Made by a program: the position numbers and the translations under genes. Shown one piece after another: positions 1-33,474 of a stretch of 64,000 nt of DNA. The notes under the pieces were generated by a model. The model did not search any database and was not told the DNA's origin. It was given only the letters and a program-made list of their open reading frames with translations. The stretch lies in sequence record MT446407.1; one strand, written 5' to 3'. Position 1 is the first letter of the stretch, and the number at the start of each line of letters is the position of its first letter. This stretch comes from Escherichia virus TH34.

Positions 1-1
1 A

Positions 2-214
2 AATTACGACACTGGCAAGAAGTCCAGCAAGGTAGTATTGATTGACCTGAATGACTACGACAACAAGGTTGTTGATAGCAAATATGCGATGCTTGTTAAC
101 GAAGCTACAGGCAAACAAATTACTATTGATCACATGATGCGGTCTAGTATGACGTTGTTCGATGAGTCGATGAACGAAATATCATCCGGTAACGGCACTT
201 GCACCAATCCGTAA
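2..214 (+). CDS. 3' end of an upstream gene (partial; 5' end outside window)
   Basis: Reading frame open from the window edge to TAA at 212-214; an intrinsic terminator follows immediately. Confidence 0.35.
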   Translation, partial: NYDTGKKSSKVVLIDLNDYDNKVVDSKYAMLVNEATGKQITIDHMMRSSMTLFDESMNEISSGNGTCTNP

Positions 215-233
215 CCAACCCGTAAGACTTCCT

Positions 234-259
234 AAGCGCCCTTTTGAGGCGCTTTTTTC
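234..259 (+). terminator. rho-independent terminator
   Basis: Stem AAGCGCC (234-240) / GGCGCTT (248-254), 7-nt loop, T6 run 253-258. Confidence 0.55.
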
Positions 260-761
260 ATTTCTAAGGTGATTGCACATCTTGCCCCTGTTTAGCTCGT
301 TAGAACGCCTCCTGTATGCCTTATTTTCGATTATAAGGCTTGTTTTCTTCCTCCCCTGATGTTATTCGTGCGCGTGCTCATCTATACCTAAAAGAAAGTG
401 AAATTATTTTAGAAAAAGGTATTGCTTTCTTTGCTTGATAGATTTATATTTGAATCTCAGGTTTAGTTATGCAGTCGGTAACAAGCCTGATAGGCTAGAC
501 TTTTAGCCTTGCTCTTTAAAAACAAGGTTTGCTTAGGAGTGGTGCTAACAAGCGTCATTACTATAAGGCACTTAGTTGATTATCCTAGTCGATTCCTCTT
601 TCATGCGTGGATTTGGCGGCCTATAAGGTCGATACTTCAAAGAAATCAGCGTTTAACAGTGTACTAGATTCTCTCAAGGCAAACTTTGTTTACTAGCTCT
701 TTAAAAATTCGATTAGTGTATCTTGATAAACTCCCAACCATGCCATAATGAGGATTTATCC

Positions 762-962
762 ATGAACATTTACACCTTCTCAAGCAAAGACACGCAAATC
801 ACTTGCACTAGCATTAACGTTACTAACATGATTATGAGAATAGTCGGTAGCACGTTACAGCAAGCGAAAGAAATGATAGCTGATGCCGACAATGGCAAAT
901 CTATCGCGGTGTTATCGCTGGTAAGTACGGATAAAGATTTAACCTTTAAACGTATGAACTAA
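762..962 (+). CDS. hypothetical small protein (67 aa)
   Basis: ATG 762 with GAGGA 7 nt upstream; track ORF 723 is the TTG-extended version; no similarity recognised. Confidence 0.25.
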   Translation: MNIYTFSSKDTQITCTSINVTNMIMRIVGSTLQQAKEMIADADNGKSIAVLSLVSTDKDLTFKRMN

Positions 963-1023
963 GGTAGGTTAGCGGCCTCAATGGTCGCTAGTTTATCAAG
1001 ATGCATTAATCGAAAAATAGTTG

Positions 1024-1051
1024 TTGACACGTCGAATCACTATGATAAGAT
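1024..1051 (+). promoter_or_regulatory. sigma70-type promoter candidate
   Basis: -35 TTGACA 1024-1029, 16-bp spacer, extended -10 TGaTAAGAT 1043-1051. Confidence 0.3.
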
Positions 1052-1255
1052 GTGATCTCAGCAGTACAGAACACTTCCAGATAGATGATTAGCATCATGT
1101 AAAAAGGCTTAAACTGGAAGGAGTGGGAACACTCAAGGCACGACGCCGAGGAAGACGGCGACATATTTAACGCTCTTTAACAAATTATCATCTTGCCCTT
1201 TCGCATAGATTCAAGCGAGATAAGGGAATAGAATAAAAGAAGATGATAAAAAGAG

Positions 1256-1283
1256 TTGACAAGGTGAAACACTCTGTTAGAAT
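1256..1283 (+). promoter_or_regulatory. strong sigma70-type promoter candidate
   Basis: -35 TTGACA 1256-1261, 16-bp spacer, extended -10 TGtTAGAAT 1275-1283, A-rich tract upstream. Confidence 0.5.
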
Positions 1284-1553
1284 GTTCACTAAGCAAGGCA
1301 ACTTGCTAAACAGTTCCCTAAGTGACGTAGCGCGGGAAAGGTGGCACATAGTGCAGCGCGTAGGTCGGGTATAGCCGCCCCGTTAGTGCATAAGTAGGCT
1401 TAAAAATGAAATGTTTGCGGAGTCATGAAAACCGCACCGCTCTTTAAAAATATGAATCAGAAAGTTAAGCGCAACCGCTTACAATCTTGTTAATCCAATG
1501 CGTGATTAACTAGTCATTCGAAAGAATAGACGAGAAAAAGATTTAAAAAGTGG

Positions 1554-1582
1554 TTGACACGCTAAACGGGATGATTCATAAT
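1554..1582 (+). promoter_or_regulatory. strong sigma70-type promoter candidate
   Basis: -35 TTGACA 1554-1559, 17-bp spacer, -10 CATAAT 1577-1582, A-rich tract upstream. Confidence 0.5.
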
Positions 1583-2493
1583 GAGCACTCACTAGGCAAC
1601 TAGTGAAACGCGAAACCACGGCGAACGGTGGCGGGAGGTGAGAAAGCACCTCGATAGATTTACCGCTCTTTAACAATTTAAACTTCTTCCTATATCGGTT
1701 GAACATGATGAGCAATAATAACCATTGCAAGTCATGCCAGATAAAACGATGTAAGGCGCTCTAGAGTATCAGAGAAAACGGCCTTGCAATCCCTTACTGG
1801 AAACGATGCCACTGATAAACGAAGTTATCGAGTACATGCAATGCTTAAGCTAATCACCTACGGTTAAAGGGTAGCGGCGGCGGGGCTAGTAAAGTGCTAC
1901 GGTAATAGACGTTAATCAGGGTAATCAATCCCGACTAATTTAGCTCAATAGCGAGCGACGGAATGAAGGTTAAAGAGTAGCAAATTGCTATTTAATAATA
2001 AGGTTTAAGTGTGAGTGTTTACTGAGCAAGTTGTTTGATGCACATCAATATGATGTGAGTACATAACAATGCAATGTAGTAAACCGTGAGAGAGATAATC
2101 AAACGCCAATTTATCAGGCGGTTAATGACTCTTTGCCATATACTTTCCCGTAGTAGGTGATAAGTCGGCTTAGAGAGTTAATATAAAAGGGTATCGCGGA
2201 GCGAACGTAAAGTAAACAGTAATGCTATCGGCTAGAAGGTTAGCTAATTAGAGATAGACACACTGCCTTATTATGATGATTAATCATCGCTGGCAAATCG
2301 GCTTCGTTTATAGCGATTAATAGAATCCACCGGATGAAACATCATGGCAAGTTAGGCGGCAAGGTTAACTCCTGATAAGTCCGCCTGATTTACCACTGAT
2401 TACTAATAGTTAGTGATTAGTGTTAAGTCATTGTGACTTGAATAGCTCATAGAGAGCGGCGCATAGAGCGTTTCAATTAAAAGGTAAATTATC

Positions 2494-3396
2494 ATGGCTA
2501 AATCTTTCAATCTGGTTAATGAATCCGGTTTTAACGCACTGGCTAACAACATTCGCAGCAATAACGCAGCAATTAAGCAAGATGTTTCTAACTTCCTGTT
2601 AGGTCACTTACAGCACTTCCGTGCTAACGGTAAGAAGTTAGACGTGTTACAGGCGGCGGTAGACTTCCTGTTAACTGAACGTTACCGTGATTTAGATGTG
2701 ATTGCAGTTGCAATTTCTTTCCTAACTCCTGTTAAGTACAACAGCGACGCGGCGAACGGTAAAAAGAAATGGATTAATCTGGAAGGTGAAGCGAAAGCGA
2801 AAGAAGACGCTAAACCTGAACAAGTTAAGGCCAAAATGGAACAAAACCGTGCCCGCTGGTCTAACTCCTTTGAACGCTTTGCGAAAGGCGAAGACGTGCA
2901 GGTTGATAACCCAGCATTTTATAAAGGTTGCAACGACAACGTTCCGGTAGCAAATCAGATTAACCAGAAGGTTAACGAAAACTTTAATCAGGACATTTAC
3001 GCTTTAACTGATCGTTTGGCTGCAATCCGTATTGAAGCGGCACTACTGGCCGATGAACGCAACGGAGCATCTTCTGATAACACTATCGCATTGAGTGAAG
3101 AAGTAGGCAAAGTTAAGAAAACTTTCGATTCACTCCTTAAGAAAGTAACCGCATCAACTGTATCTATCAGCGATGACTACTTGATTAACGCATCTTCAAA
3201 AGAGCTTGAATCTCTGGACTCATACGCTGATGAAATGGAAAAGGCGATCAACGAAATGACCGAAAAATTGTCTAACCTTCGCGGTCGTATCTCAAATGCT
3301 TCAACTGTCAAAGCGAACGAGAAAGCGGCGGCAGACGAGGAAGAAGTATTGCGTAAAGCTGCCGAGATCATGGCAGCACGCCAACAAGCTGCATAA
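2494..3396 (+). CDS. hypothetical early protein (300 aa)
   Basis: First long ORF after the promoter leader; ATG 2494 with AAAGG upstream; no motif recognised. Confidence 0.6.
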   Translation: MAKSFNLVNESGFNALANNIRSNNAAIKQDVSNFLLGHLQHFRANGKKLDVLQAAVDFLLTERYRDLDVIAVAISFLTPVKYNSDAANGKKKWINLEGEAKAKEDAKPEQVKAKMEQNRARWSNSFERFAKGEDVQVDNPAFYKGCNDNVPVANQINQKVNENFNQDIYALTDRLAAIRIEAALLADERNGASSDNTIALSEEVGKVKKTFDSLLKKVTASTVSISDDYLINASSKELESLDSYADEMEKAINEMTEKLSNLRGRISNASTVKANEKAAADEEEVLRKAAEIMAARQQAA

Positions 3397-3417
3397 CCTA
3401 CAATAAAGAACATATAA

Positions 3418-3450
3418 GGCGCTATTCGAAAGGGTAGCGCCTTTTCTTTT
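3418..3450 (+). terminator. rho-independent terminator
   Basis: Stem GGCGCTA (3418-3424) / TAGCGCC (3435-3441) followed by TTTTCTTTT. Confidence 0.55.
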
Positions 3451-3504
3451 ACTAGTGCATTGATTCAGTGTACTAATCAAAGAAACTAAAAAGAGATAAA
3501 CACC

Positions 3505-3729
3505 ATGCCAAAATTGAAAACAGAAGTTAAGATGTATCGTAACGTCATCAACAACATGACCTATCGAAAAACCGATAAATATGGAATCGAGTGTAAGTGC
3601 ATTCTTACCGGTGAATGGTATCCGTCGCCGATTCAAGAACAAGCGTTAATTGAAAACTCTGTTACTTACACTATCACGCAGGAAACTAAGCTAGGCCGAT
3701 TCCTTCGTAAGTTAGGGCTACGCAAATGA
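3505..3729 (+). CDS. hypothetical protein (74 aa)
   Basis: ATG-initiated ORF in compact array; no similarity recognised. Confidence 0.45.
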   Translation: MPKLKTEVKMYRNVINNMTYRKTDKYGIECKCILTGEWYPSPIQEQALIENSVTYTITQETKLGRFLRKLGLRK

Positions 3730-3947
3730 TCTTAACTCAATCCCATTTGTGTCCTATCTGTAAGAAAGCGCGTGCTAATAACAATCATCGCAAGTGTAGC
3801 AGAATCCTACAGCGTCGTCGTAATGATGCCGAGATGGATAAAATGCACAAAAACCAGCATGAGCACGAAAGAAAACAAGCGGCGATCAATGCATCTTCTG
3901 TAATGTATCGTCGTGTAAGATCACTCCAATATAAGGATGCTATCTAA
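3726..3947 (+). CDS. hypothetical basic Cys/His-containing protein (73 aa)
   Basis: ATGA overlap with upstream stop; CPIC...HRKC residues suggest possible metal binding. Confidence 0.45.
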   Translation: MILTQSHLCPICKKARANNNHRKCSRILQRRRNDAEMDKMHKNQHEHERKQAAINASSVMYRRVRSLQYKDAI

Positions 3948-4156
3948 TGACCAGTTTAAGCACGTTAGAGAAGAAAGCTACTCGACTGCTAGGGCGTCGT
4001 GTCCGCTATCACTACCTGAATAAAGGTAAGGCATTAACCGGACGTATTACCACGGTGTCCAGTCGCTGCGGTAAGTTAATATCTGTAAGTGTCCTCTTTG
4101 ATGGCGAACGTGTAGCAATTACACGTAGTTGGAAGTCGTTTAGTTTAATTGATTAA
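3947..4156 (+). CDS. hypothetical protein (69 aa)
   Basis: TAATG start/stop overlap with upstream gene; TAAGGA upstream. Confidence 0.45.
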   Translation: MTSLSTLEKKATRLLGRRVRYHYLNKGKALTGRITTVSSRCGKLISVSVLFDGERVAITRSWKSFSLID

Positions 4157-4226
4157 GTTATTTGGTTAAGCCTTGCTATGTGGTAAGGCTTGCACGATAT
4201 AATTTATCAGCGAAAGGAATAAAGCA

Positions 4227-4670
4227 ATGGCTAAATCTAAAATCAGCATGAAAGGCGGGCGTGTGTTCTCGATGAGTGAACTGGAAAAAGATAAGCCAGT
4301 CGCTACTAACCACATTAGCAAACGTAGCCTTAAACGTAGAGCTATCAAACAAACCGCTCAAGAACATAAACCCTCTACCGTAGCAAAGGTGTTAGGTCGT
4401 CGTGTTCATCGTGCTGATGCGCTTCTTAAAGCTGATCATAACCGTTCACTGTTAACCAACGGTGCAGCGAAAACAGAAGAAGAGAAACGTTTAGAAATCT
4501 ATTGCAACGGTCGCACTAAAGGTAAGCAGAAGAATAAAGGTAGCACTAAGCCACCGAAAGCTTTCCCTACTACTAGTCAATGTGCACCGGATGTTTTCTA
4601 CGCTGACAGTCAGCATAAGTGGGGAGTCGAAAAATACATTGACCCCATCAAGGAAGCGAGAGTAAAGTAA
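4227..4670 (+). CDS. hypothetical Lys/Arg-rich basic protein (147 aa)
   Basis: ATG 4227 with AAAGGA upstream; highly basic composition. Confidence 0.5.
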   Translation: MAKSKISMKGGRVFSMSELEKDKPVATNHISKRSLKRRAIKQTAQEHKPSTVAKVLGRRVHRADALLKADHNRSLLTNGAAKTEEEKRLEIYCNGRTKGKQKNKGSTKPPKAFPTTSQCAPDVFYADSQHKWGVEKYIDPIKEARVK

Positions 4671-4728
4671 GCCTCTTCTCTGTACCAGTAGTCAACTACT
4701 ATGACGCTCTTCTTGAGCGTCTTTGTGT
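4671..4728 (+). repeat. conserved post-stop element, copy 1 (GCCTCTTCTCT...CTACTATGACGC + hairpin)
   Basis: Near-identical 11-12-nt blocks shared with 11773-11828; both copies start right after a stop codon and end in a terminator hairpin. Confidence 0.4.
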
Positions 4729-4751
4729 CTGCCGCCTTTGTGCGGCTTTTT
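4703..4751 (+). terminator. tandem rho-independent terminators
   Basis: Hairpin GACGCTC/GAGCGTC (4703-4721) + TTTGTGT; hairpin GCCGC/GCGGC (4731-4746) + TTTTT. Confidence 0.5.
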
Positions 4752-4911
4752 GCGTAGCTAGTGATGCCTAAAGGGCACTCCCTTTGTGAATCATTGGCAT
4801 GGTTCAATCCCTATTGGATGGTCATTTGACCGGGCCTTTAACGAGGCCGCTTTTTTAAGAGTCTTTACGAGGATTCTTAAATGAGTGAGGTCATGTTCAC
4901 TCTTTCAGGTC

Positions 4912-4938
4912 GCCCCGTCTTCGGATGGGGCTTTTTTA
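4912..4938 (+). terminator. rho-independent terminator
   Basis: Stem GCCCC (4912-4916) / GGGGC (4927-4931), then T6. Confidence 0.55.
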
Positions 4939-4989
4939 TGCCCGTAAAACAGGAGGTAGTAAGTTCTGATAACGACAGCCCAGCTACTT

Positions 4990-5376
4990 TTGACATTGAC
5001 TATTTATTATGAGGCAGGGAATCAGCCAACCGCTTGCAAAGCATTAGTAGCGGATACCGTAATAAACAGAATGTCACAACGAAAACTGACTGCCGAGCAG
5101 GTTATAAACCAACGAAACCAGTTCGAGTGGATACCCGTCTTATTAAAGAAGGAGAAACCTTTCAAACGTTATGTAAAGCTAATTCGTGATGATAATCCCC
5201 TGATAAAGAAGTCAATCAGAGAGAGCGAGCGGCTTGCAAGGCGTGCACTGAAGAAAAGTTATGTGCCTTTATACAGTGGTACATACTTTCAGAGTAAGAG
5301 CGAAGGGGTGCCAAAGTGGTATACCAATCCAATGTATTGTGGTGATTTAGTGTTCAATAATAGTGCCCGTGACTGA
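4990..5376 (+). CDS. SleB/CwlJ-like cell-wall hydrolase domain protein (start uncertain)
   Basis: YYEAGNQP...VINRM...NQFEW resembles the EARGE...NR...QF pattern of the cell-wall hydrolase family; track start is TTG; frame is open upstream to 4963 behind a strong AGGAGG. Confidence 0.4.
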   Translation: MTLTIYYEAGNQPTACKALVADTVINRMSQRKLTAEQVINQRNQFEWIPVLLKKEKPFKRYVKLIRDDNPLIKKSIRESERLARRALKKSYVPLYSGTYFQSKSEGVPKWYTNPMYCGDLVFNNSARD

Positions 5377-5577
5377 TTCATAGGTGCCAAGATTGACAAA
5401 CTAAATTTCCTTATAAATCACCTACTTATGATTTTCTCTGCAAAAAGTGGTAGTGATTCGGAACCAGAGGTAATGACTGTATATAGACCTCTGAAAATTA
5501 TTGATAGAAATTAAGTTTAGAAATAATAAATTCTAAATAATATTTCTTATAATATCTTACTTTAAGAGGATAAAGAT

Positions 5578-5883
5578 ATGTCTTTAGAGGTGTATAAGTT
5601 CCTTCTCGTACTCACTGTAACGATTTCTACTCTGGGATTTATTGCTTTAAGTAATAAGTCAGCAAGCTGGAAGCGTCGTTATGAGTTTCTTCTTAAGCAA
5701 GAGGAAGTCTTTAATGCTGATGTTCGTTCCAAGTTGGTCAAGATGCAGGAGCAAATTGAAGCACGTAATGATCGTTTGGCTTCTTTGGGTTGGGAGATTA
5801 AGAGTATTCAAGATCTCAACAAGCAACTCACTGAAGAGATTAAACGCCAGAATGAGGAAACAGAGGATGCGCTCAAAGGTTAA
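5578..5883 (+). CDS. membrane-anchored coiled-coil protein (101 aa)
   Basis: AAGAGGA upstream; N-terminal hydrophobic helix then charged heptad-like region. Confidence 0.5.
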   Translation: MSLEVYKFLLVLTVTISTLGFIALSNKSASWKRRYEFLLKQEEVFNADVRSKLVKMQEQIEARNDRLASLGWEIKSIQDLNKQLTEEIKRQNEETEDALKG

Positions 5884-6043
5884 GTTTACCACTGGTCACA
5901 CTGTTCGCCTTGTTGGCGGTACTCAAACAGGCGTTATTCGTCGGAGAACAACAATTGACGGTGTTCTCTGTTATCTTGTTCAGTGGAATGGTGAATCCTC
6001 TCCTTCCTTCGAACGTCGTACTGATTTGGTGTTAATCAAATGA
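5867..6043 (+). CDS. hypothetical small protein (58 aa)
   Basis: ATG 5867 with GAGGA upstream; track ORF 5681 is an overlapping extension. Confidence 0.4.
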   Translation: MRSKVKFTTGHTVRLVGGTQTGVIRRRTTIDGVLCYLVQWNGESSPSFERRTDLVLIK

Positions 6044-6225
6044 CAAGTAAAGTAAAGATCAATGATAACGTTGTCTATGCACAAAAAGGTTTCTCATTGG
6101 TTCCTTTAATTGGGAAGGTTATTTGGGTGTGTGGTGGTGTTGTTCAAATTAAAGCACCAAGTGGTCGTCTTGTTACTCGTTGGCGTGATGAAGTCATCAT
6201 TCTTCCGAAGGAGTACGGTCAATGA
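6040..6225 (+). CDS. hypothetical small protein (61 aa), resembles preceding ORF
   Basis: ATGA-coupled start; shares a KVK...V..G... pattern with 5867..6043. Confidence 0.45.
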   Translation: MTSKVKINDNVVYAQKGFSLVPLIGKVIWVCGGVVQIKAPSGRLVTRWRDEVIILPKEYGQ

Positions 6226-6461
6226 AGATGAATTTCGAAATCGTCCCAAGGACTAAACAGAAGACGTTAACTTTCGGTGATTTATCTAATGGAGATATCT
6301 TCAAGTTTAAAAATCCCGATGCTGACACTTTTTTCTGGATGAAGATTGCTTCGCCGTTTTCGTCGGCTATGAAGTTAAGCAACACCTCTGACATACTCAA
6401 GGTTTCTGCGAACGCTGAAGTTAAAAAGTATGAATACAAAATTCTTATTGAGGGTAAATAA
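6222..6461 (+). CDS. small protein, GD(V/I)F paralog family
   Basis: Motif TFGDLSNGDIFKF near N-terminus; ATGA-coupled. Confidence 0.5.
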   Translation: MKMNFEIVPRTKQKTLTFGDLSNGDIFKFKNPDADTFFWMKIASPFSSAMKLSNTSDILKVSANAEVKKYEYKILIEGK

Positions 6462-6691
6462 TGAAAATCAACCTCTCCCCTGAAGTTGTTACTAAAAAGC
6501 TCGATGAGTTGCGTCCGGGTGATGTGTTCCGTTTACCTGTTAACTCAGAACACCTCTACCTAAAAACTGATGTGTGTTTGAGTGGTATGCGTCGAGTGGT
6601 TGGTCTTGGTCAGGGAACACTGTTCCAGTTACAGGAAGATCACGAAGTTATTCCTGTACGTAATGTTCAAGTAACTCGTATCGGTGGTTAA
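6461..6691 (+). CDS. small protein, GD(V/I)F paralog family
   Basis: Motif LRPGDVFRL; TAATG-coupled. Confidence 0.5.
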   Translation: MKINLSPEVVTKKLDELRPGDVFRLPVNSEHLYLKTDVCLSGMRRVVGLGQGTLFQLQEDHEVIPVRNVQVTRIGG

Positions 6692-6916
6692 ATGAAGATT
6701 GATATCGACAATACACCAGCGGTTGTAACTCTCGGTGATCTAAATCCGGGTGAAGTCTTCCAGTTTAATTACAACGAAACTCAATATTACATGCGTACTG
6801 CATGTTACGGTGAAAACAAAAGTTATTTTGTTAACCTTTATACAGGTAAACGTGAATCTGAGTGTAAATCAACTGTAGTCAGACCTTTGCCTAACGCACG
6901 ATTAACCAATAAGTAA
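6692..6916 (+). CDS. small protein, GD(V/I)F paralog family
   Basis: Motif LGDLNPGEVFQF. Confidence 0.5.
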   Translation: MKIDIDNTPAVVTLGDLNPGEVFQFNYNETQYYMRTACYGENKSYFVNLYTGKRESECKSTVVRPLPNARLTNK

Positions 6917-6923
6917 CATCGAC

Positions 6924-7040
6924 TTATAGCCCTTGTGCTTATCAGAGGGCTATGTGAGGATGTTCCTCAATTAACTATAATCTCAATGCCATATGGCTCA
7001 CCGCTAGGGCGAGACTTGTCTCAAACATCCGGTGATAGAC
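6924..7040 (+). repeat. conserved intergenic element, copy A (possible structured RNA or operator)
   Basis: Shares with 12771-12900 an identical hairpin ATAGCCCT/AGGGCTAT (12-nt loop) plus two further stems that differ in sequence but keep pairing (GAGGA/TCCTC vs GAGC/GCTC; GAGAC/GTCTC vs GAGGA/TCCTC). Confidence 0.4.
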
Positions 7041-7146
7041 TAAAACCTGTTTAATTTTCGAATGGCATTCCGATATGTAGGGGTATGTATCGGTTTGGGA
7101 TAGAGAACAATCTAGGGGTAGAGAGTTCTCGACAGTTTGTACAAGC

Positions 7147-7180
7147 GGAAGCCTTAACGTGTAGGGCTTCCCTTTATATT
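7147..7180 (+). terminator. rho-independent terminator candidate
   Basis: Stem GGAAGCC (7147-7153) / GGCTTCC (7165-7171), then CTTTATATT. Confidence 0.4.
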
Positions 7181-7219
7181 AACTGGCAACCCTGCCTCCA
7201 CTAACAAAGAGAGAACGTT

Positions 7220-7360
7220 ATGAAGAAGTCAACCAAGCGTATGAACCGTCCTGAACGTATGGATGCAGTAGCAAATGGCGCTCTGAAGATTGAGTCTGCC
7301 ATGCTTCGTCTGACAACTAACATCCGTAAACGTCAAGGTGATTGGTTCTATGGCGGCTGA
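7220..7360 (+). CDS. hypothetical small protein (46 aa)
   Basis: ATG 7220 to TGA 7358-7360; below the track length cut-off; weak RBS. Confidence 0.3.
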   Translation: MKKSTKRMNRPERMDAVANGALKIESAMLRLTTNIRKRQGDWFYGG

Positions 7361-7547
7361 GCATGATGTTGGTATTCGTGAGATTATTCGTCTTGCGATA
7401 ATTGATCACCCTAACAGTCGCAATGGCCTATTGTTACAGGTTTCTAAATGTCTTAATTGTGACAAAGATGTGGCCAAAGAATTATTCTTTGCATTCATCT
7501 ATAACGCAGATGATCGCTTCTTGAATAACAAGTTGCGTAGTGCTTAA
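7350..7547 (+). CDS. hypothetical protein (65 aa)
   Basis: ATG 7350 with AAGGTG upstream, in frame with track ORF 7338. Confidence 0.4.
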   Translation: MAAEHDVGIREIIRLAIIDHPNSRNGLLLQVSKCLNCDKDVAKELFFAFIYNADDRFLNNKLRSA

Positions 7548-7552
7548 TAAGA

Positions 7553-7583
7553 GGCTGCCCTTCGGGGTGGCCTTTGTTGTTTT
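7553..7583 (+). terminator. rho-independent terminator
   Basis: Stem GGCTGCCC / GGGTGGCC (two G-U pairs), TTCG loop, then TTTGTTGTTTT. Confidence 0.5.
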
Positions 7584-7626
7584 AATTAAGAGGTAGCTCT
7601 TACTTAAACTAATAAGAGAGGTTGAT

Positions 7627-7857
7627 ATGAAGATTAACGTTGTAAAGAAAGAAAAGAAATCTGCTACCTTTGCTGACTTAGCAATCGGCGACGTGTTTCA
7701 ACTTGCCGATGGTATAAAAACTCTGATCTACATGCGTGTTTTCAATAGCCGTGCTATCTGCCTTAACAATCCTACATGCCTCGAATCTACAACACGGATT
7801 AACAGCGATACTTCTATCATCCAGCTCCGTGCAGAGCTAATTGTCACCGAGGTTTGA
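7627..7857 (+). CDS. small protein, GD(V/I)F paralog family
   Basis: Motif FADLAIGDVFQL. Confidence 0.5.
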   Translation: MKINVVKKEKKSATFADLAIGDVFQLADGIKTLIYMRVFNSRAICLNNPTCLESTTRINSDTSIIQLRAELIVTEV

Positions 7858-7858
7858 T

Positions 7859-8068
7859 GTGAACATTCGTTTAGTTCGTAAGCAAGATGGCAGACAGGTT
7901 GTGCTAGGTGAGATTGTTTGTGCTGCACATAACCTACTCCCTGAAAAAGATGAAACTATCTGGTTTGATGGAGAGCAGCGCCGAGTATTGTCGGTTGTTA
8001 AATCTTTCGAGCCAAAGCGTAACAATGAAAAAGCTCTTACCTGTTGGTTTGAGGTTGATATTACATAG
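7859..8068 (+). CDS. hypothetical protein (start GTG 7859 or TTG 7841)
   Basis: No in-frame ATG; GTG 7859 follows upstream stop and a GAGG. Confidence 0.4.
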   Translation: MNIRLVRKQDGRQVVLGEIVCAAHNLLPEKDETIWFDGEQRRVLSVVKSFEPKRNNEKALTCWFEVDIT

Positions 8069-8076
8069 AGGTTGAT

Positions 8077-8328
8077 ATGCGTAATCCATTTTTTGATCGT
8101 AAAGGTCGCACCGAAATTCTGATACCTTCTATCGGTGTGCCGGTTAAGTTTGGTGAGATGCGTGCTGGTGATTTCTTCATGGAATCAGGACATCTTTATC
8201 TGAAGATCGACCTTGAACATGCTGTTGAAATTCTTAGTGATAATAAGCCAATCATAGGAACTTCAATGTTCAGTACAAATCACACTGTATTTGTTGTCAA
8301 CGTCCAGATTGAGATTAAAGCGCCATGA
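8077..8328 (+). CDS. small protein, GD(V/I)F paralog family
   Basis: Motif FGEMRAGDFFME. Confidence 0.5.
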   Translation: MRNPFFDRKGRTEILIPSIGVPVKFGEMRAGDFFMESGHLYLKIDLEHAVEILSDNKPIIGTSMFSTNHTVFVVNVQIEIKAP

Positions 8329-9448: not shown

Positions 9449-9524
9449 GCACCCTTAGCTCAATGGATAGAGCAGCGACCTTCTAAGTCGTTGGTTACAG
9501 GTTCGAGTCCTGTAGGGTGCACCA
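9449..9524 (+). tRNA. tRNA-Arg: tRNA-Arg (anticodon UCU)
   Basis: Cloverleaf by eye: acceptor GCACCCT/AGGGTGC, D-arm GCTC-AATGGATA-GAGC, anticodon loop CUUCUAA, T-arm CAGG-TTCGAGT-CCTG, encoded CCA. Confidence 0.8.
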
Positions 9525-11397: not shown

Positions 11398-11659
11398 GGA
11401 TGGTTCAAAGTATGTATCACTATTGGATGCAGCCCTTCTCTGCACGTACTGGCTCCTTATTGTTATTGGGGTCGTGCTAGGGCTATGTGGTATCGTACAA
11501 TTCTTTATGTACCTGCAAAGCGTGTTAGATATCACACTAGCTAACACTATAATCCTTGCAATTCTCGGTATTATTGCTTTCTGTGTGATTGTCTTCTTCG
11601 TTTGGTTATCTATGAACGACGACTCTACACACCTTCTATTGACAGGAGAAAATCAGTGA
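11387..11659 (+). CDS. small integral membrane protein
   Basis: GTG start with GGAG upstream; two hydrophobic helices. Confidence 0.45.
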   Translation: MKHKDGSKYVSLLDAALLCTYWLLIVIGVVLGLCGIVQFFMYLQSVLDITLANTIILAILGIIAFCVIVFFVWLSMNDDSTHLLLTGENQ

Positions 11660-11772
11660 GAAAACGTGCCTACTCTGAAGAAGAGATGGTTAGCCTGAAA
11701 GGCTTTGGTCAGCGACAGCCTGATGGCTCAGTTATCTGGTACATTAACGGACAGAAAAAGGCAAGTAAATAA
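11656..11772 (+). CDS. hypothetical small protein (38 aa)
   Basis: GTG 11656 overlapping upstream TGA, AGGAG 7 nt upstream; ends directly at repeat copy 2. Confidence 0.3.
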   Translation: MRKRAYSEEEMVSLKGFGQRQPDGSVIWYINGQKKASK

Positions 11773-11828
11773 GCCCTCTTCTCTCCTCCCTTTAGCTACT
11801 ATGACGCCTCTCTTTTCGGCGCTGTTTT
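11773..11828 (+). repeat. conserved post-stop element, copy 2 (GCCCTCTTCTCT...CTACTATGACGC + weak terminator)
   Basis: Same blocks as 4671-4728; GC stem 11805-11808/11818-11821 then CTGTTTT. Confidence 0.4.
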
Positions 11829-11840
11829 GGAGCTTCAAAA

Positions 11841-12254
11841 ATGTCTGGGAAATTCCCCAACGTAAGCAAGAAATTGGCTTACCTCACGTATAAAGAAAAC
11901 ATTGATCTTCTGGTCAAACTTTATCCGGCTTCATTCAACAAGCAATTCCCTCTTCCTTTGGAGCTTAACATCCATAAGGAAATCGCCCGCAAGACCGGTT
12001 GGTCAGCGGAGAAAACAAGCATGGTGCTCAACATCTGGACTACTCGTATGGAGTATGTGATGATGGCATGTAGCACTGGTAAGCGCTTCAAGCTGCACTC
12101 TGTAGCTATGAAGATTCGTAGTCCTATTGACCCTGAGCCGATGGCTGGGTTCAGCAGTCGTCTGAAAGCTTTCCGTGATAAACGTCGTGTGGTGAAGTTC
12201 AAGCACGATTTCTCGTACAAGTTTGGATACGAAGCGTTCCAATTCGTTGTTTAA
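11841..12254 (+). CDS. ProQ/FinO-like RNA-binding protein candidate
   Basis: LVKLYPASF..FPLPLELNIHKEIARKTGWSAEKTSMVLNIWTTRMEY aligns by eye to the ProQ/FinO N-terminal domain. Confidence 0.4.
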   Translation: MSGKFPNVSKKLAYLTYKENIDLLVKLYPASFNKQFPLPLELNIHKEIARKTGWSAEKTSMVLNIWTTRMEYVMMACSTGKRFKLHSVAMKIRSPIDPEPMAGFSSRLKAFRDKRRVVKFKHDFSYKFGYEAFQFVV

Positions 12255-12282: not shown

Positions 12283-12516
12283 ATGTCTAAAGTTAGCGCA
12301 ATTGATGCCATCCGTCAGCCGTTCCAGTTTGAATCCAAGTCAACTCAGACCCAAAGTGAACCGCGTCAGATTCGTCTGGGTGGTACAGAGAAGTCTGTGT
12401 TTGATATTGCGAAAAACAAAAGCGTGACCATCGTCGAAGGCGGTGAGCTGGTTAATGTTTCCCACCGTATCCGCACTGGCAAAACTGCCAAAGATCGTGC
12501 TAAGAAAGGTCTGTAA
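12283..12516 (+). CDS. hypothetical protein (77 aa)
   Basis: ATG-initiated ORF in compact array. Confidence 0.45.
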   Translation: MSKVSAIDAIRQPFQFESKSTQTQSEPRQIRLGGTEKSVFDIAKNKSVTIVEGGELVNVSHRIRTGKTAKDRAKKGL

Positions 12517-12767
12517 TGCAAATTGCTAATAAAACCCCTCCTGAATCAATTACCCAAGTAAAGGATATGTCACCGGGAGATGTATTTCGTGCAACGGAAT
12601 ATCCGGGGGAGTTCTTTATTCGAATCCCCTCAGCTTCTGTTGGTGGCATTGCTAAACCTGTAACAGCAGTTCAGCTAAGTACAGGACATCTCTTCCGTTT
12701 AGAGATTGACATGGTTGTAATCCCTGTTCCAACAGCAATCCTTCGCTTTGACGGAGCCACAGAGTAA
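12516..12767 (+). CDS. small protein, GD(V/I)F paralog family
   Basis: Motif MSPGDVFRATEYPGEFF. Confidence 0.5.
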   Translation: MQIANKTPPESITQVKDMSPGDVFRATEYPGEFFIRIPSASVGGIAKPVTAVQLSTGHLFRLEIDMVVIPVPTAILRFDGATE

Positions 12768-12770
12768 CAT

Positions 12771-12900
12771 TTATAGCCCTTGTGAGTATCAGAGGGCTAT
12801 GTGAGCTATTCTGGCTCAACTAACCTAAACTTAATTTAATCTTACCCGTATGGGGCCGATGCTAGGGAGAGGAATAGTCCTCGAACATCCGTCGGATAGA
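12771..12900 (+). repeat. conserved intergenic element, copy B
   Basis: See copy A (6924-7040); also follows the stop of a GD(V/I)F family gene. Confidence 0.4.
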
Positions 12901-12963: not shown

Positions 12964-12988
12964 GGCTCTCTTAGGAGAGTCCTTTTTT
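12964..12988 (+). terminator. rho-independent terminator
   Basis: Stem GGCTCTC / GAGAGTCC then T6. Confidence 0.5.
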
Positions 12989-13008
12989 AAGTTCAAAGAA
13001 GAGGTTGT

Positions 13009-33462: not shown

Positions 33463-33474
33463 TAATGTATACTC
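33463..33474 (+). promoter_or_regulatory. TAATGTATA element (candidate phage-specific promoter)
   Basis: Exact TAATGTATA 29 nt upstream of ATG 33504; same core as 39779-39790 and minus-strand 49307-49318. Confidence 0.3.

Follow-up and report, generated by a model that had tools for sequence, protein, structure and literature searches.

An open reading frame on the + strand of Escherichia virus TH34 encodes a FinO-domain protein that is minimal and divergent and carries an additional basic helix towards its C terminus. The window, by which we mean the whole 64,000-nucleotide stretch of sequence record MT446407.1 analysed here, carries this ATG-initiated frame at exactly 11841..12254, and its product is 137 amino acids long. 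Four independent lines of evidence show that the protein has the ProQ/FinO fold. The domain call is correct yet unsurprising, and the protein adds a divergent member to a family that is already known.

A sequence-only reading of this DNA had proposed a ProQ/FinO domain from a motif (L..L.P..F...FPLPL.L.IH..I...G.S.....S.VL..WT.R.EY) that is literally present in residues 23-72, and Pfam, a family profile searched against the PDB and the predicted fold all agree with that proposal. In Pfam, which the reading had named as a check, the protein matches the ProQ/FinO family PF04352 over residues 18-89 (11892-12107, + strand; E 2.6e-6) with 27.8 bits against a gathering cut-off of 27, a single-sequence score that is marginal at 0.8 bits over the gathering score. 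The precomputed database Pfam call for a 96%-identical cluster is also PF04352. Neither NCBIfam nor PADLOC gave any match (0 each) for the ProQ-like protein, and no other defence-related signal was found.

Word-indexed homolog searching returned only the near-identical cluster, and an exhaustive search of representatives was needed: phmmer against 1.84 billion representatives retrieved 45 relatives at E <= 1e-3. The query and 38 of these 45 relatives make up a family alignment of 39 sequences (hereafter A1), in which mean column identity is ~21% and every sequence (39/39) matches PF04352, with a best E-value of 1.7e-20. Single-sequence phmmer against the PDB gave nothing meaningful (top match a mannosidase, E 1.3). 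The A1 profile recovered the E. coli ProQ N-terminal domain as its best match (5NB9, E 1.4e-16), along with RocC (7RGU, E 8.1e-14), Lpp1663 (6S10, E 1.3e-10), FinO (1DVO, E 1.7e-10) and NMB1681 (3MW6, E 1.4e-6); beyond FinO-domain entries, matches fall to E >= 0.5.

Structure prediction, also suggested as a check, likewise produced a FinO-domain fold. AlphaFold2 supplied with A1 gave a mean pLDDT of 92 and a pTM of 0.86, and the single-sequence run without an alignment was unusable (pLDDT 41). When the alignment-based model was compared with the PDB by Foldseek, ranks 1-26 were all FinO-domain chains at probability 1.00, after which the E-value jumps to 1.5. The fold occupies residues ~13-110 of the model (11877..12170, +) and consists of helices 10-27, 44-52, 56-66 and 70-79, a beta-hairpin formed by 81-83 and 93-95, and a final canonical helix at 98-110. 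Six-frame hmmsearch of the window found no second FinO-domain frame; phage 7-11 has one, the FinO-fold protein G0X575 listed in BFVD.

The protein is strongly basic (pI 10.0; 25 Lys and Arg against 11 Asp and Glu; net charge about +14), and its putative RNA-binding surface can be read against two studies, the structure and mutagenesis of RocC bound to the RocR terminator (PMC9674577) and a mutational study of E. coli ProQ (PMC10168233). In the window protein, RocC and ProQ alike, the pocket Tyr follows the helix N-cap Ser by 17 residues in a gap-free register. In RocC, a Tyr-Arg pocket holds the 3'-terminal nucleotide by its phosphate and its ribose hydroxyls (PMC9674577), and Y70/R80 form the corresponding 3'-terminal-nucleotide pocket in ProQ (PMC10168233). 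The pocket Tyr (RocC Y87, ProQ Y70) is Y72 in the window protein (12054-12056, +) and the pocket Arg (RocC R97, ProQ R80) is R82 (12084-12086, +); both are invariant in 39/39 A1 sequences, and their spacing of 10 residues equals that of the known Tyr/Arg pockets. At the periphery of the pocket, R107 (RocC K119, ProQ Q102) is basic as in RocC.

The segment that caps the stem-binding helix maps to S55-A56-E57-K58-T59-S60 (12003..12020, +), a placement that rests on the residue mapping and the model. The N-cap Ser (RocC S70, ProQ S53) is kept as S55, directly preceding predicted helix 56-66, in an A1 column with 15 Ser and 13 Thr among its 39 residues; the stem contact made by RocC K73 (ProQ Q56) is kept, relative to RocC, as K58. 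The stem-contacting Arg (RocC R75, ProQ R58) is not kept and is S60 here. This position is ~80% conserved, and the RocC R75D substitution weakens binding >100-fold (PMC9674577), while ProQ R58A abolishes binding to 7/7 RNAs tested (PMC10168233). The A1 column at S60 contains 13 Ser, 5 Arg, 4 Gly, 3 Asn and 3 Asp; the Arg is not an absolute family-defining residue, and Ser60 is still a marked departure. Neither of two moderate contributors is kept (RocC K71/ProQ K54, here A56; RocC V79/ProQ R62, here N64), nor is a variable contributor (RocC K50/ProQ K35, here E41), and RocC R83 and ProQ R69 correspond to T68 and E71, respectively.

The beta-turn Gly (RocC G52, ProQ G37), present in 34/39 A1 members, is likewise not kept and is N43 in the window protein and in its close relatives. 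Where a turn requires a positive phi angle, Asn replaces Gly more often than any other residue does, so the beta-turn may be retained at Asn43 despite the loss of Gly.

The phage family has its own signature, W66-T-x-R69-x-E71-Y72, in which R69 is invariant in A1. Invariance of Y72, R82 and R69 in a family with so low a mean column identity points to retention of the 3'-nucleotide pocket. Our reading is that the 3'-end pocket has been kept and the way in which the hairpin stem is held remodelled. The basic ridge represented by ProQ K54, R58 and R62 is gone (A56, S60 and N64 here), so stem recognition would have to use other residues; substitute contacts probably come from K58, from R69, which is invariant in the family, and from the basic helix near the C terminus. 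RNA specificity probably differs from that of host ProQ.

The C-terminal helix is predicted at residues 114-128 (12180..12224, +), in the tail SRLKAFRDKRRVVKFKHDFSYKFGYEAF. Lys and Arg abound in this helix, which comes after the last canonical helix (98-110) and is situated outside the region aligned to solved FinO domains; residues 101-130 have a pLDDT of ~97 in the alignment-based model. About two-thirds of the phage family have a related motif, F..(D/K)(F/Y)...(F/Y).....G..(A/P)(F/L), in A1 columns 150-185. In ECBP2/SU7-type proteins, to which the window protein belongs, the beta-hairpin is also longer by three inserted residues (K91-I92-R93). Across the 137 residues Pfam detects no further domain, and the model adds only the one helix after the FinO domain. 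Because just 12 residues precede the domain and ~27 follow it, the architecture is that of a minimal FinO-domain protein, like N. meningitidis ProQ and Lpp1663.

The sequence-only reading had gone further and suggested an RNA chaperone. The ProQ/FinO part of that label stands; the chaperone part reaches beyond the evidence, as the protein has neither the three-part build of enterobacterial ProQ nor the N-terminal extension of FinO. The term that can be defended is 'RNA 3'-end/hairpin-binding protein'.

Comparison with characterized systems places these features in context. The closest in build are NMB1681 (3MW6), which is 141 residues long with terminal extensions of 19 and 13 residues (PMC11912907), and Lpp1663 (6S10). 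Both are chromosomal and ~19-20% identical to the window protein, whereas the latter is phage-encoded, lacks the stem-contacting Arg, has Asn in place of the beta-turn Gly, and adds the K91-I92-R93 insertion and the family-specific C-terminal helix. RocC differs from the window protein at K71, R75, R83 and G52; its C-terminal region is long, and one sRNA is its sole known partner. E. coli/Salmonella ProQ (5NB9), the best match between profile and sequence, shares the Tyr/Arg pocket but not K35, K54, R58, R62 or R69. ProQ also has a basic linker and a Tudor-like C-terminal domain (~230 residues in total), both of which the window protein lacks, and is a global regulator; host E. coli encodes it, so that the two proteins would coexist in infected cells. 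Plasmid FinO (1DVO) and FopA have a long N-terminal helix or extension that is missing here and that in FinO contributes to strand exchange (PMC11912907). FinO and FopA also have FinP- or Inc-like antisense RNAs, for which scans of the window found no counterpart.

The frame at 11841-12254 is a real gene under strong purifying selection, as judged by its codon-position bias and its dN/dS across eight phages (the window, ECBP2, PAS59, EK010, NC-B, Bas87, MLP3 and SU7). Pairwise differences summed over these orthologs are distributed 105/57/420 among the three codon positions, and mean dN is 0.017 against a mean dS of 0.208 (ratio 0.083). The FinO core is almost invariant: within residues 13-92 the sole change among the eight phages is a conservative I44V, and the remaining variable residues are position 2 and positions in 93-131, where most of the variation lies. 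The start is preceded, at a distance of 8 nt, by a GGAG ribosome-binding site (11829-11832, +). Directly upstream, a 38-residue open reading frame at 11656-11772 (+) has a GTG start that overlaps the stop of the preceding gene (GTGA) and a GGAG 8 nt 5' of it. This small frame is annotated in ECBP2, PAS59, EK010 and MLP3 and carries no annotation in SU7; it is conserved, with changes mostly at third positions.

The window comes from a phiEco32-like podophage whose nearest relatives, at 89-94% nucleotide identity, are ECBP2, Bas88 and SU7, a group assigned to Gordonclarkvirinae, Suseptimavirus. Genes on the + strand run from ~1 kb to ~44 kb of the window, and the large structural genes are on the - strand. 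Strong sigma70-like promoters are found at 1024, 1256 and 1554, and the first exact + strand match to the consensus of promoters read by the phage sigma factor gp36, TAATGTATA, occurs at 33463. In the phiEco32 scheme, sigma70 holoenzyme reads the early genes, and early and middle genes lie opposite the late genes (PMC8948821, PMC12276001). By synteny with this scheme, we infer that the ProQ-like gene belongs to the early block. It appears to be the sixth open reading frame of a unit that extends from ~10.6 kb to an intrinsic-terminator-like hairpin (GGCTCTC-TTAG-GAGAGTC followed by T6) found by a terminator scan at 12964..12990 (+). That hairpin folds at -15.6 kcal/mol (z -2.1) and corresponds in position to an annotated terminator of SU7; the early transcription unit holding the ProQ-like gene probably has its 3' end here.

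Within the group, the gene is found in 21 phage records that represent 16 phages at 93-96% nucleotide identity, and all 21 label its product 'hypothetical protein'. Its neighbours are common to at least 97 records, of which 21 have the ProQ-like gene; because the neighbours also occur in records without it, we regard the gene as an accessory early gene. In phage 4E8, other small open reading frames sit where it would be. Taxonomic labels are inconsistent with gene content in this region: PAS59, NC-B and MLP3 are recorded as Kuravirus yet carry the ECBP2/SU7-type early region and the ProQ-like gene, whereas Kuravirus 4E8 does not.

More distant homologs, at 30-41% identity, are all phage-borne. 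They come from Erwinia Kolesnikvirus (where a few carry the label 'proQ: RNA chaperone' or 'sRNA-binding protein'), Salmonella phages 7-11 and SE131, Aeromonas LAh phages ('putative RNA chaperone'), Shewanella phage KASIA (KASIA_p031) and metagenomic phage contigs. The window protein also matches PHROG 18901 and PHROG 35316, both labelled 'unknown function'. By sequence and by fold (BFVD), the phage FinO-domain proteins (PHROG 18901/35316, 7-11 gp122, Kolesnikvirus, LAh, KASIA_p031) form one clade with the window protein, and the ECBP2/SU7-type proteins are its most derived members, with N43, K84 and S87 in place of the family's G, D and G, and with the KIR insertion. Recent acquisition from a plasmid was considered and ruled out: tblastn against plasmids found essentially nothing, the one match being a weak one in Photobacterium (E 8e-3).

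The domain call itself is already present in UniProt automatic annotation, and in BFVD both the SU7 ortholog (A0A8F3C9D8, 96% identical) and 7-11 gp122 are named 'ProQ/FinO domain-containing protein'. Reviews mention that phages encode FinO/ProQ homologs (PMC9977716), and the KASIA genome paper remarks on one in the early region that lacks a FinP-like neighbour (PMC8541194). Our literature search found no characterized virus-encoded FinO-domain protein and no experimental study of a member from a lytic phage.

Two further features of the distant relatives deserve mention. Phage 7-11 gp122 (locus L002, 2983-3687) and some metagenomic members (P0013-P0015, P0027, P0029) represent a long form of 227-250 residues with an extra ~95-residue C-terminal domain; this domain matches nothing in Pfam and contains a conserved motif, GNHP(F/L)R(D/N)G. 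In five diverged lineages (L002, which is 7-11; L004; L005-L007; L008/L010, which are Kolesnikvirus; and L021), the FinO-domain gene adjoins genes for PRPP synthetase (Prs) and for nicotinamide phosphoribosyltransferase (NAMPT), an enzyme of NAD salvage. The order is ProQ-Prs-NAMPT in most lineages and Prs-HNH-NAMPT-ProQ in Kolesnikvirus, and TerC often follows. This adjacency could reflect either module co-inheritance or a functional link. Neither a PRPP synthetase nor a NAMPT gene was found in the window by tblastn, so any metabolic link is not obligatory.

The sequence-only reading had also remarked on an apparent abundance of structured non-coding elements in the early region. Positions 1-8000 contain 18 terminator-like hairpins against 6.4 +/- 2.8 expected, nearly all of them on the coding strand. 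By analogy with known ligands, these hairpins would provide many generic candidates for FinO-type binding. An Rfam scan of the whole window returned only tRNA-Arg (9449-9521). Promoter and terminator matches on the minus strand are weak and no commoner than chance, and no FinP-like antisense candidate was found there.

The most conspicuous structured element is an ORF-poor array of 275 nt at 4671-4945 (+), whose predicted fold (-106 kcal/mol, z -6.2) is a row of some ten hairpins; those at 4703, 4731, 4833 and 4912 are terminator-like and have T-runs. It may be an ncRNA or an array of terminators. Its full length occurs in exactly the 21 records that have the ProQ-like gene, and other relatives have only its last ~58 nt; because the 21 records are one clade, this co-occurrence is not independent evidence of a connection.

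The array is also related to the leader of the ProQ-like gene, a conserved 68-nt intergenic segment (11773..11840, +) paralogous to 4668-4735. Besides the GGAG site and a U-run, the leader holds CTACTATGACGC and a weak hairpin (ACGCC/GGCG). The two copies of the shared element (4668-4735 and 11770-11835, +) begin at a TAA stop, read TAAGCC(C)TCTTCTCT...CTACTATGACGC and continue into a hairpin and T-run, so that the element is both the start of the array and the leader of the gene; within the window, the 12-mer CTACTATGACGC occurs exactly at 4696 and 11796 only. Across the eight phages, 41 consecutive nucleotides of the leader are invariant against a dS of ~0.21 in the adjacent gene, and the leader element is found in 7/7 ProQ-carrying relatives examined and missing from 4E8. 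Its RNA folding is unexceptional (z -0.15), and predicted RNA structure does not account for the conservation. The two-copy element could be a DNA-level signal or a linker at module boundaries or for recombination. The same ordinary folding energy gives no support to the hairpin and U-run upstream of the gene as a stable attenuator or ligand, strikingly conserved though their sequence is.

Several other repeats and small genes were observed in the region. Right after the start codon of the ProQ-like gene, the palindrome CTGGGAAATTCCCCAA (11845-11860) is conserved in all relatives. It scored as a terminator-like site on the minus strand. Considered there as the end of an antisense RNA, it was rejected, as its stem is 4-6 bp, it is situated in coding sequence and no promoter matches it; it is probably a chance occurrence or a hairpin of the translation-initiation region. 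An intergenic hairpin, TTATAGCCCTTGTG..TATCAGAGGGCTATGTGAG, is repeated at 6924-6958 and 12771-12805 (+) with 94% identity, in each case just past a stop codon, and a terminator core, TCTTAGGAGAGTCCTTT, occurs three times (10366, 10581 and 12969, +). These repeated hairpins suggest boundary elements reused between early gene cassettes. Motifs common to several early frames of ~80 residues at both the nucleotide and the protein level (6500-6535, 6731-6766, 8149-8179 and 12679-12701, +), L..(L/M).PGD.F among them, indicate that these small early proteins are a family of paralogs. The member at 12516-12767 is two genes downstream of the ProQ-like gene. At metagenomic locus L005, the frame that comes next after the ProQ-like gene encodes 82 residues with weak similarity (E 4.6e-4) to the member at 6497-6682.

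What might such a protein do for the phage? By analogy with characterized FinO-domain proteins, whose common ligand is a terminator hairpin with a 3' tail (PMC9977716), we consider it fairly probable that the protein, made early, uses its Y72/R82 pocket and the helix capped by S55 to bind RNAs ending in a hairpin and a short 3' tail. A phiEco32-like coliphage of the ECBP2/SU7 type would make this minimal FinO-domain protein early in infection, and the protein would dock on a hairpin with a short 3' tail, the shape left by intrinsic termination, as ProQ, FinO, RocC and NMB1681 do, with S55 capping a helix that reads consecutive phosphates of the stem. Burial of the 3' end would shield the RNA from 3' exonucleases and polyadenylation, and might possibly help with pairing; host ProQ is reported to protect RNA against poly(A) polymerase (PMC12086684). 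The most plausible ligands would be phage early transcripts and structured non-coding RNAs, made from sigma70-dependent early transcription that, by analogy with phiEco32 gp79, would be shut off later in infection.

Three other explanations rank below this model. The protein might instead serve a single phage ncRNA as its dedicated partner, as in the pairs FinO/FinP, FopA/Inc and RocC/RocR, such that an sRNA from the 4671-4945 array or from its own leader is stabilized and paired with a target mRNA, timing the passage from early to middle expression. FinO-domain proteins of mobile elements usually have one cognate RNA (PMC9977716, PMC9674577), and the strongly folded 275-nt array accompanies the gene at full length and shares an element with its leader, itself invariant over 41 nt. 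That co-occurrence is confounded by phylogeny, however, and there is neither an antisense promoter-terminator pair nor an Rfam family to point to; the leader hairpin is weak, and sequence variation is too scant for covariation. We thus regard a dedicated partner as unlikely, if the foremost of the three.

Mimicry of, or competition with, host ProQ on host RNA 3' ends seems less likely again. By covering 3' ends of host sRNAs and mRNAs that depend on ProQ, such a protein would rewire post-transcriptional control in the host, and labile type I antitoxin sRNAs (for example Sib) could outlast host shut-off with its help, so that abortive infection is prevented. Sib antitoxin RNAs are among the ligands of host ProQ (PMC10168233), phages of the phiEco32 type use gp79 to shut off sigma70 transcription (PMC12276001), the pocket for the 3' end is as in ProQ, and the gene is found among accessory host-takeover genes in 21/97 related records. 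Replacement of all three ProQ stem contacts (K54, R58 and R62) nevertheless argues against an identical ligand set, and the empty PADLOC search offers this explanation no help from the defence side. Least probable of all, and very unlikely in our view, is a FinO fold that has lost its RNA-binding ridge and been repurposed for binding protein or DNA or for a role in nucleotide or NAD metabolism. The missing R58/R75 equivalent and neighbouring basic residues, the replaced Gly and the PRPP synthetase and NAMPT genes beside homologs in other phage lineages fit such a change of use; against it are the invariant Tyr72, Arg82 and R69 in so divergent a family, the very basic character of the protein and the lack of either metabolic gene in the window. 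We know of no FinO-domain protein with a non-RNA function.

A bolder reading is that the phage clade with the WTxRxEY motif is a functionally distinct FinO-domain subtype, in which the 3'-end pocket is kept and the C-terminal basic helix replaces the stem-reading ridge, and which either selectively caps the phage's early RNAs or a dedicated hairpin-array ncRNA or rescues labile host antitoxin RNAs once transcription has been shut off. We think this improbable as a whole. If true, it would be the first post-transcriptional role in host takeover or against abortive infection for a virus-encoded ProQ-like protein, and in other phages the role may couple to NAD-salvage modules.

FinO/ProQ proteins, encoded by chromosomes and plasmids alike, rank among the major RNA-binding regulators. 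For annotation, the present assignment means that 21 GenBank records could be upgraded from 'hypothetical protein' to 'ProQ/FinO domain-containing protein'. The loss of an otherwise essential stem-contacting Arg is a mildly interesting point in itself: with the equivalent of the essential ProQ R58 absent, the phage clade is a natural experiment on which residues of the FinO domain are dispensable. The clade infects E. coli K-12-type hosts, includes phages Bas86-88 of the BASEL collection and coexists with a well-studied host ProQ, all of which makes it convenient for studies of how a virus benefits from encoding a 3'-end-binding protein.
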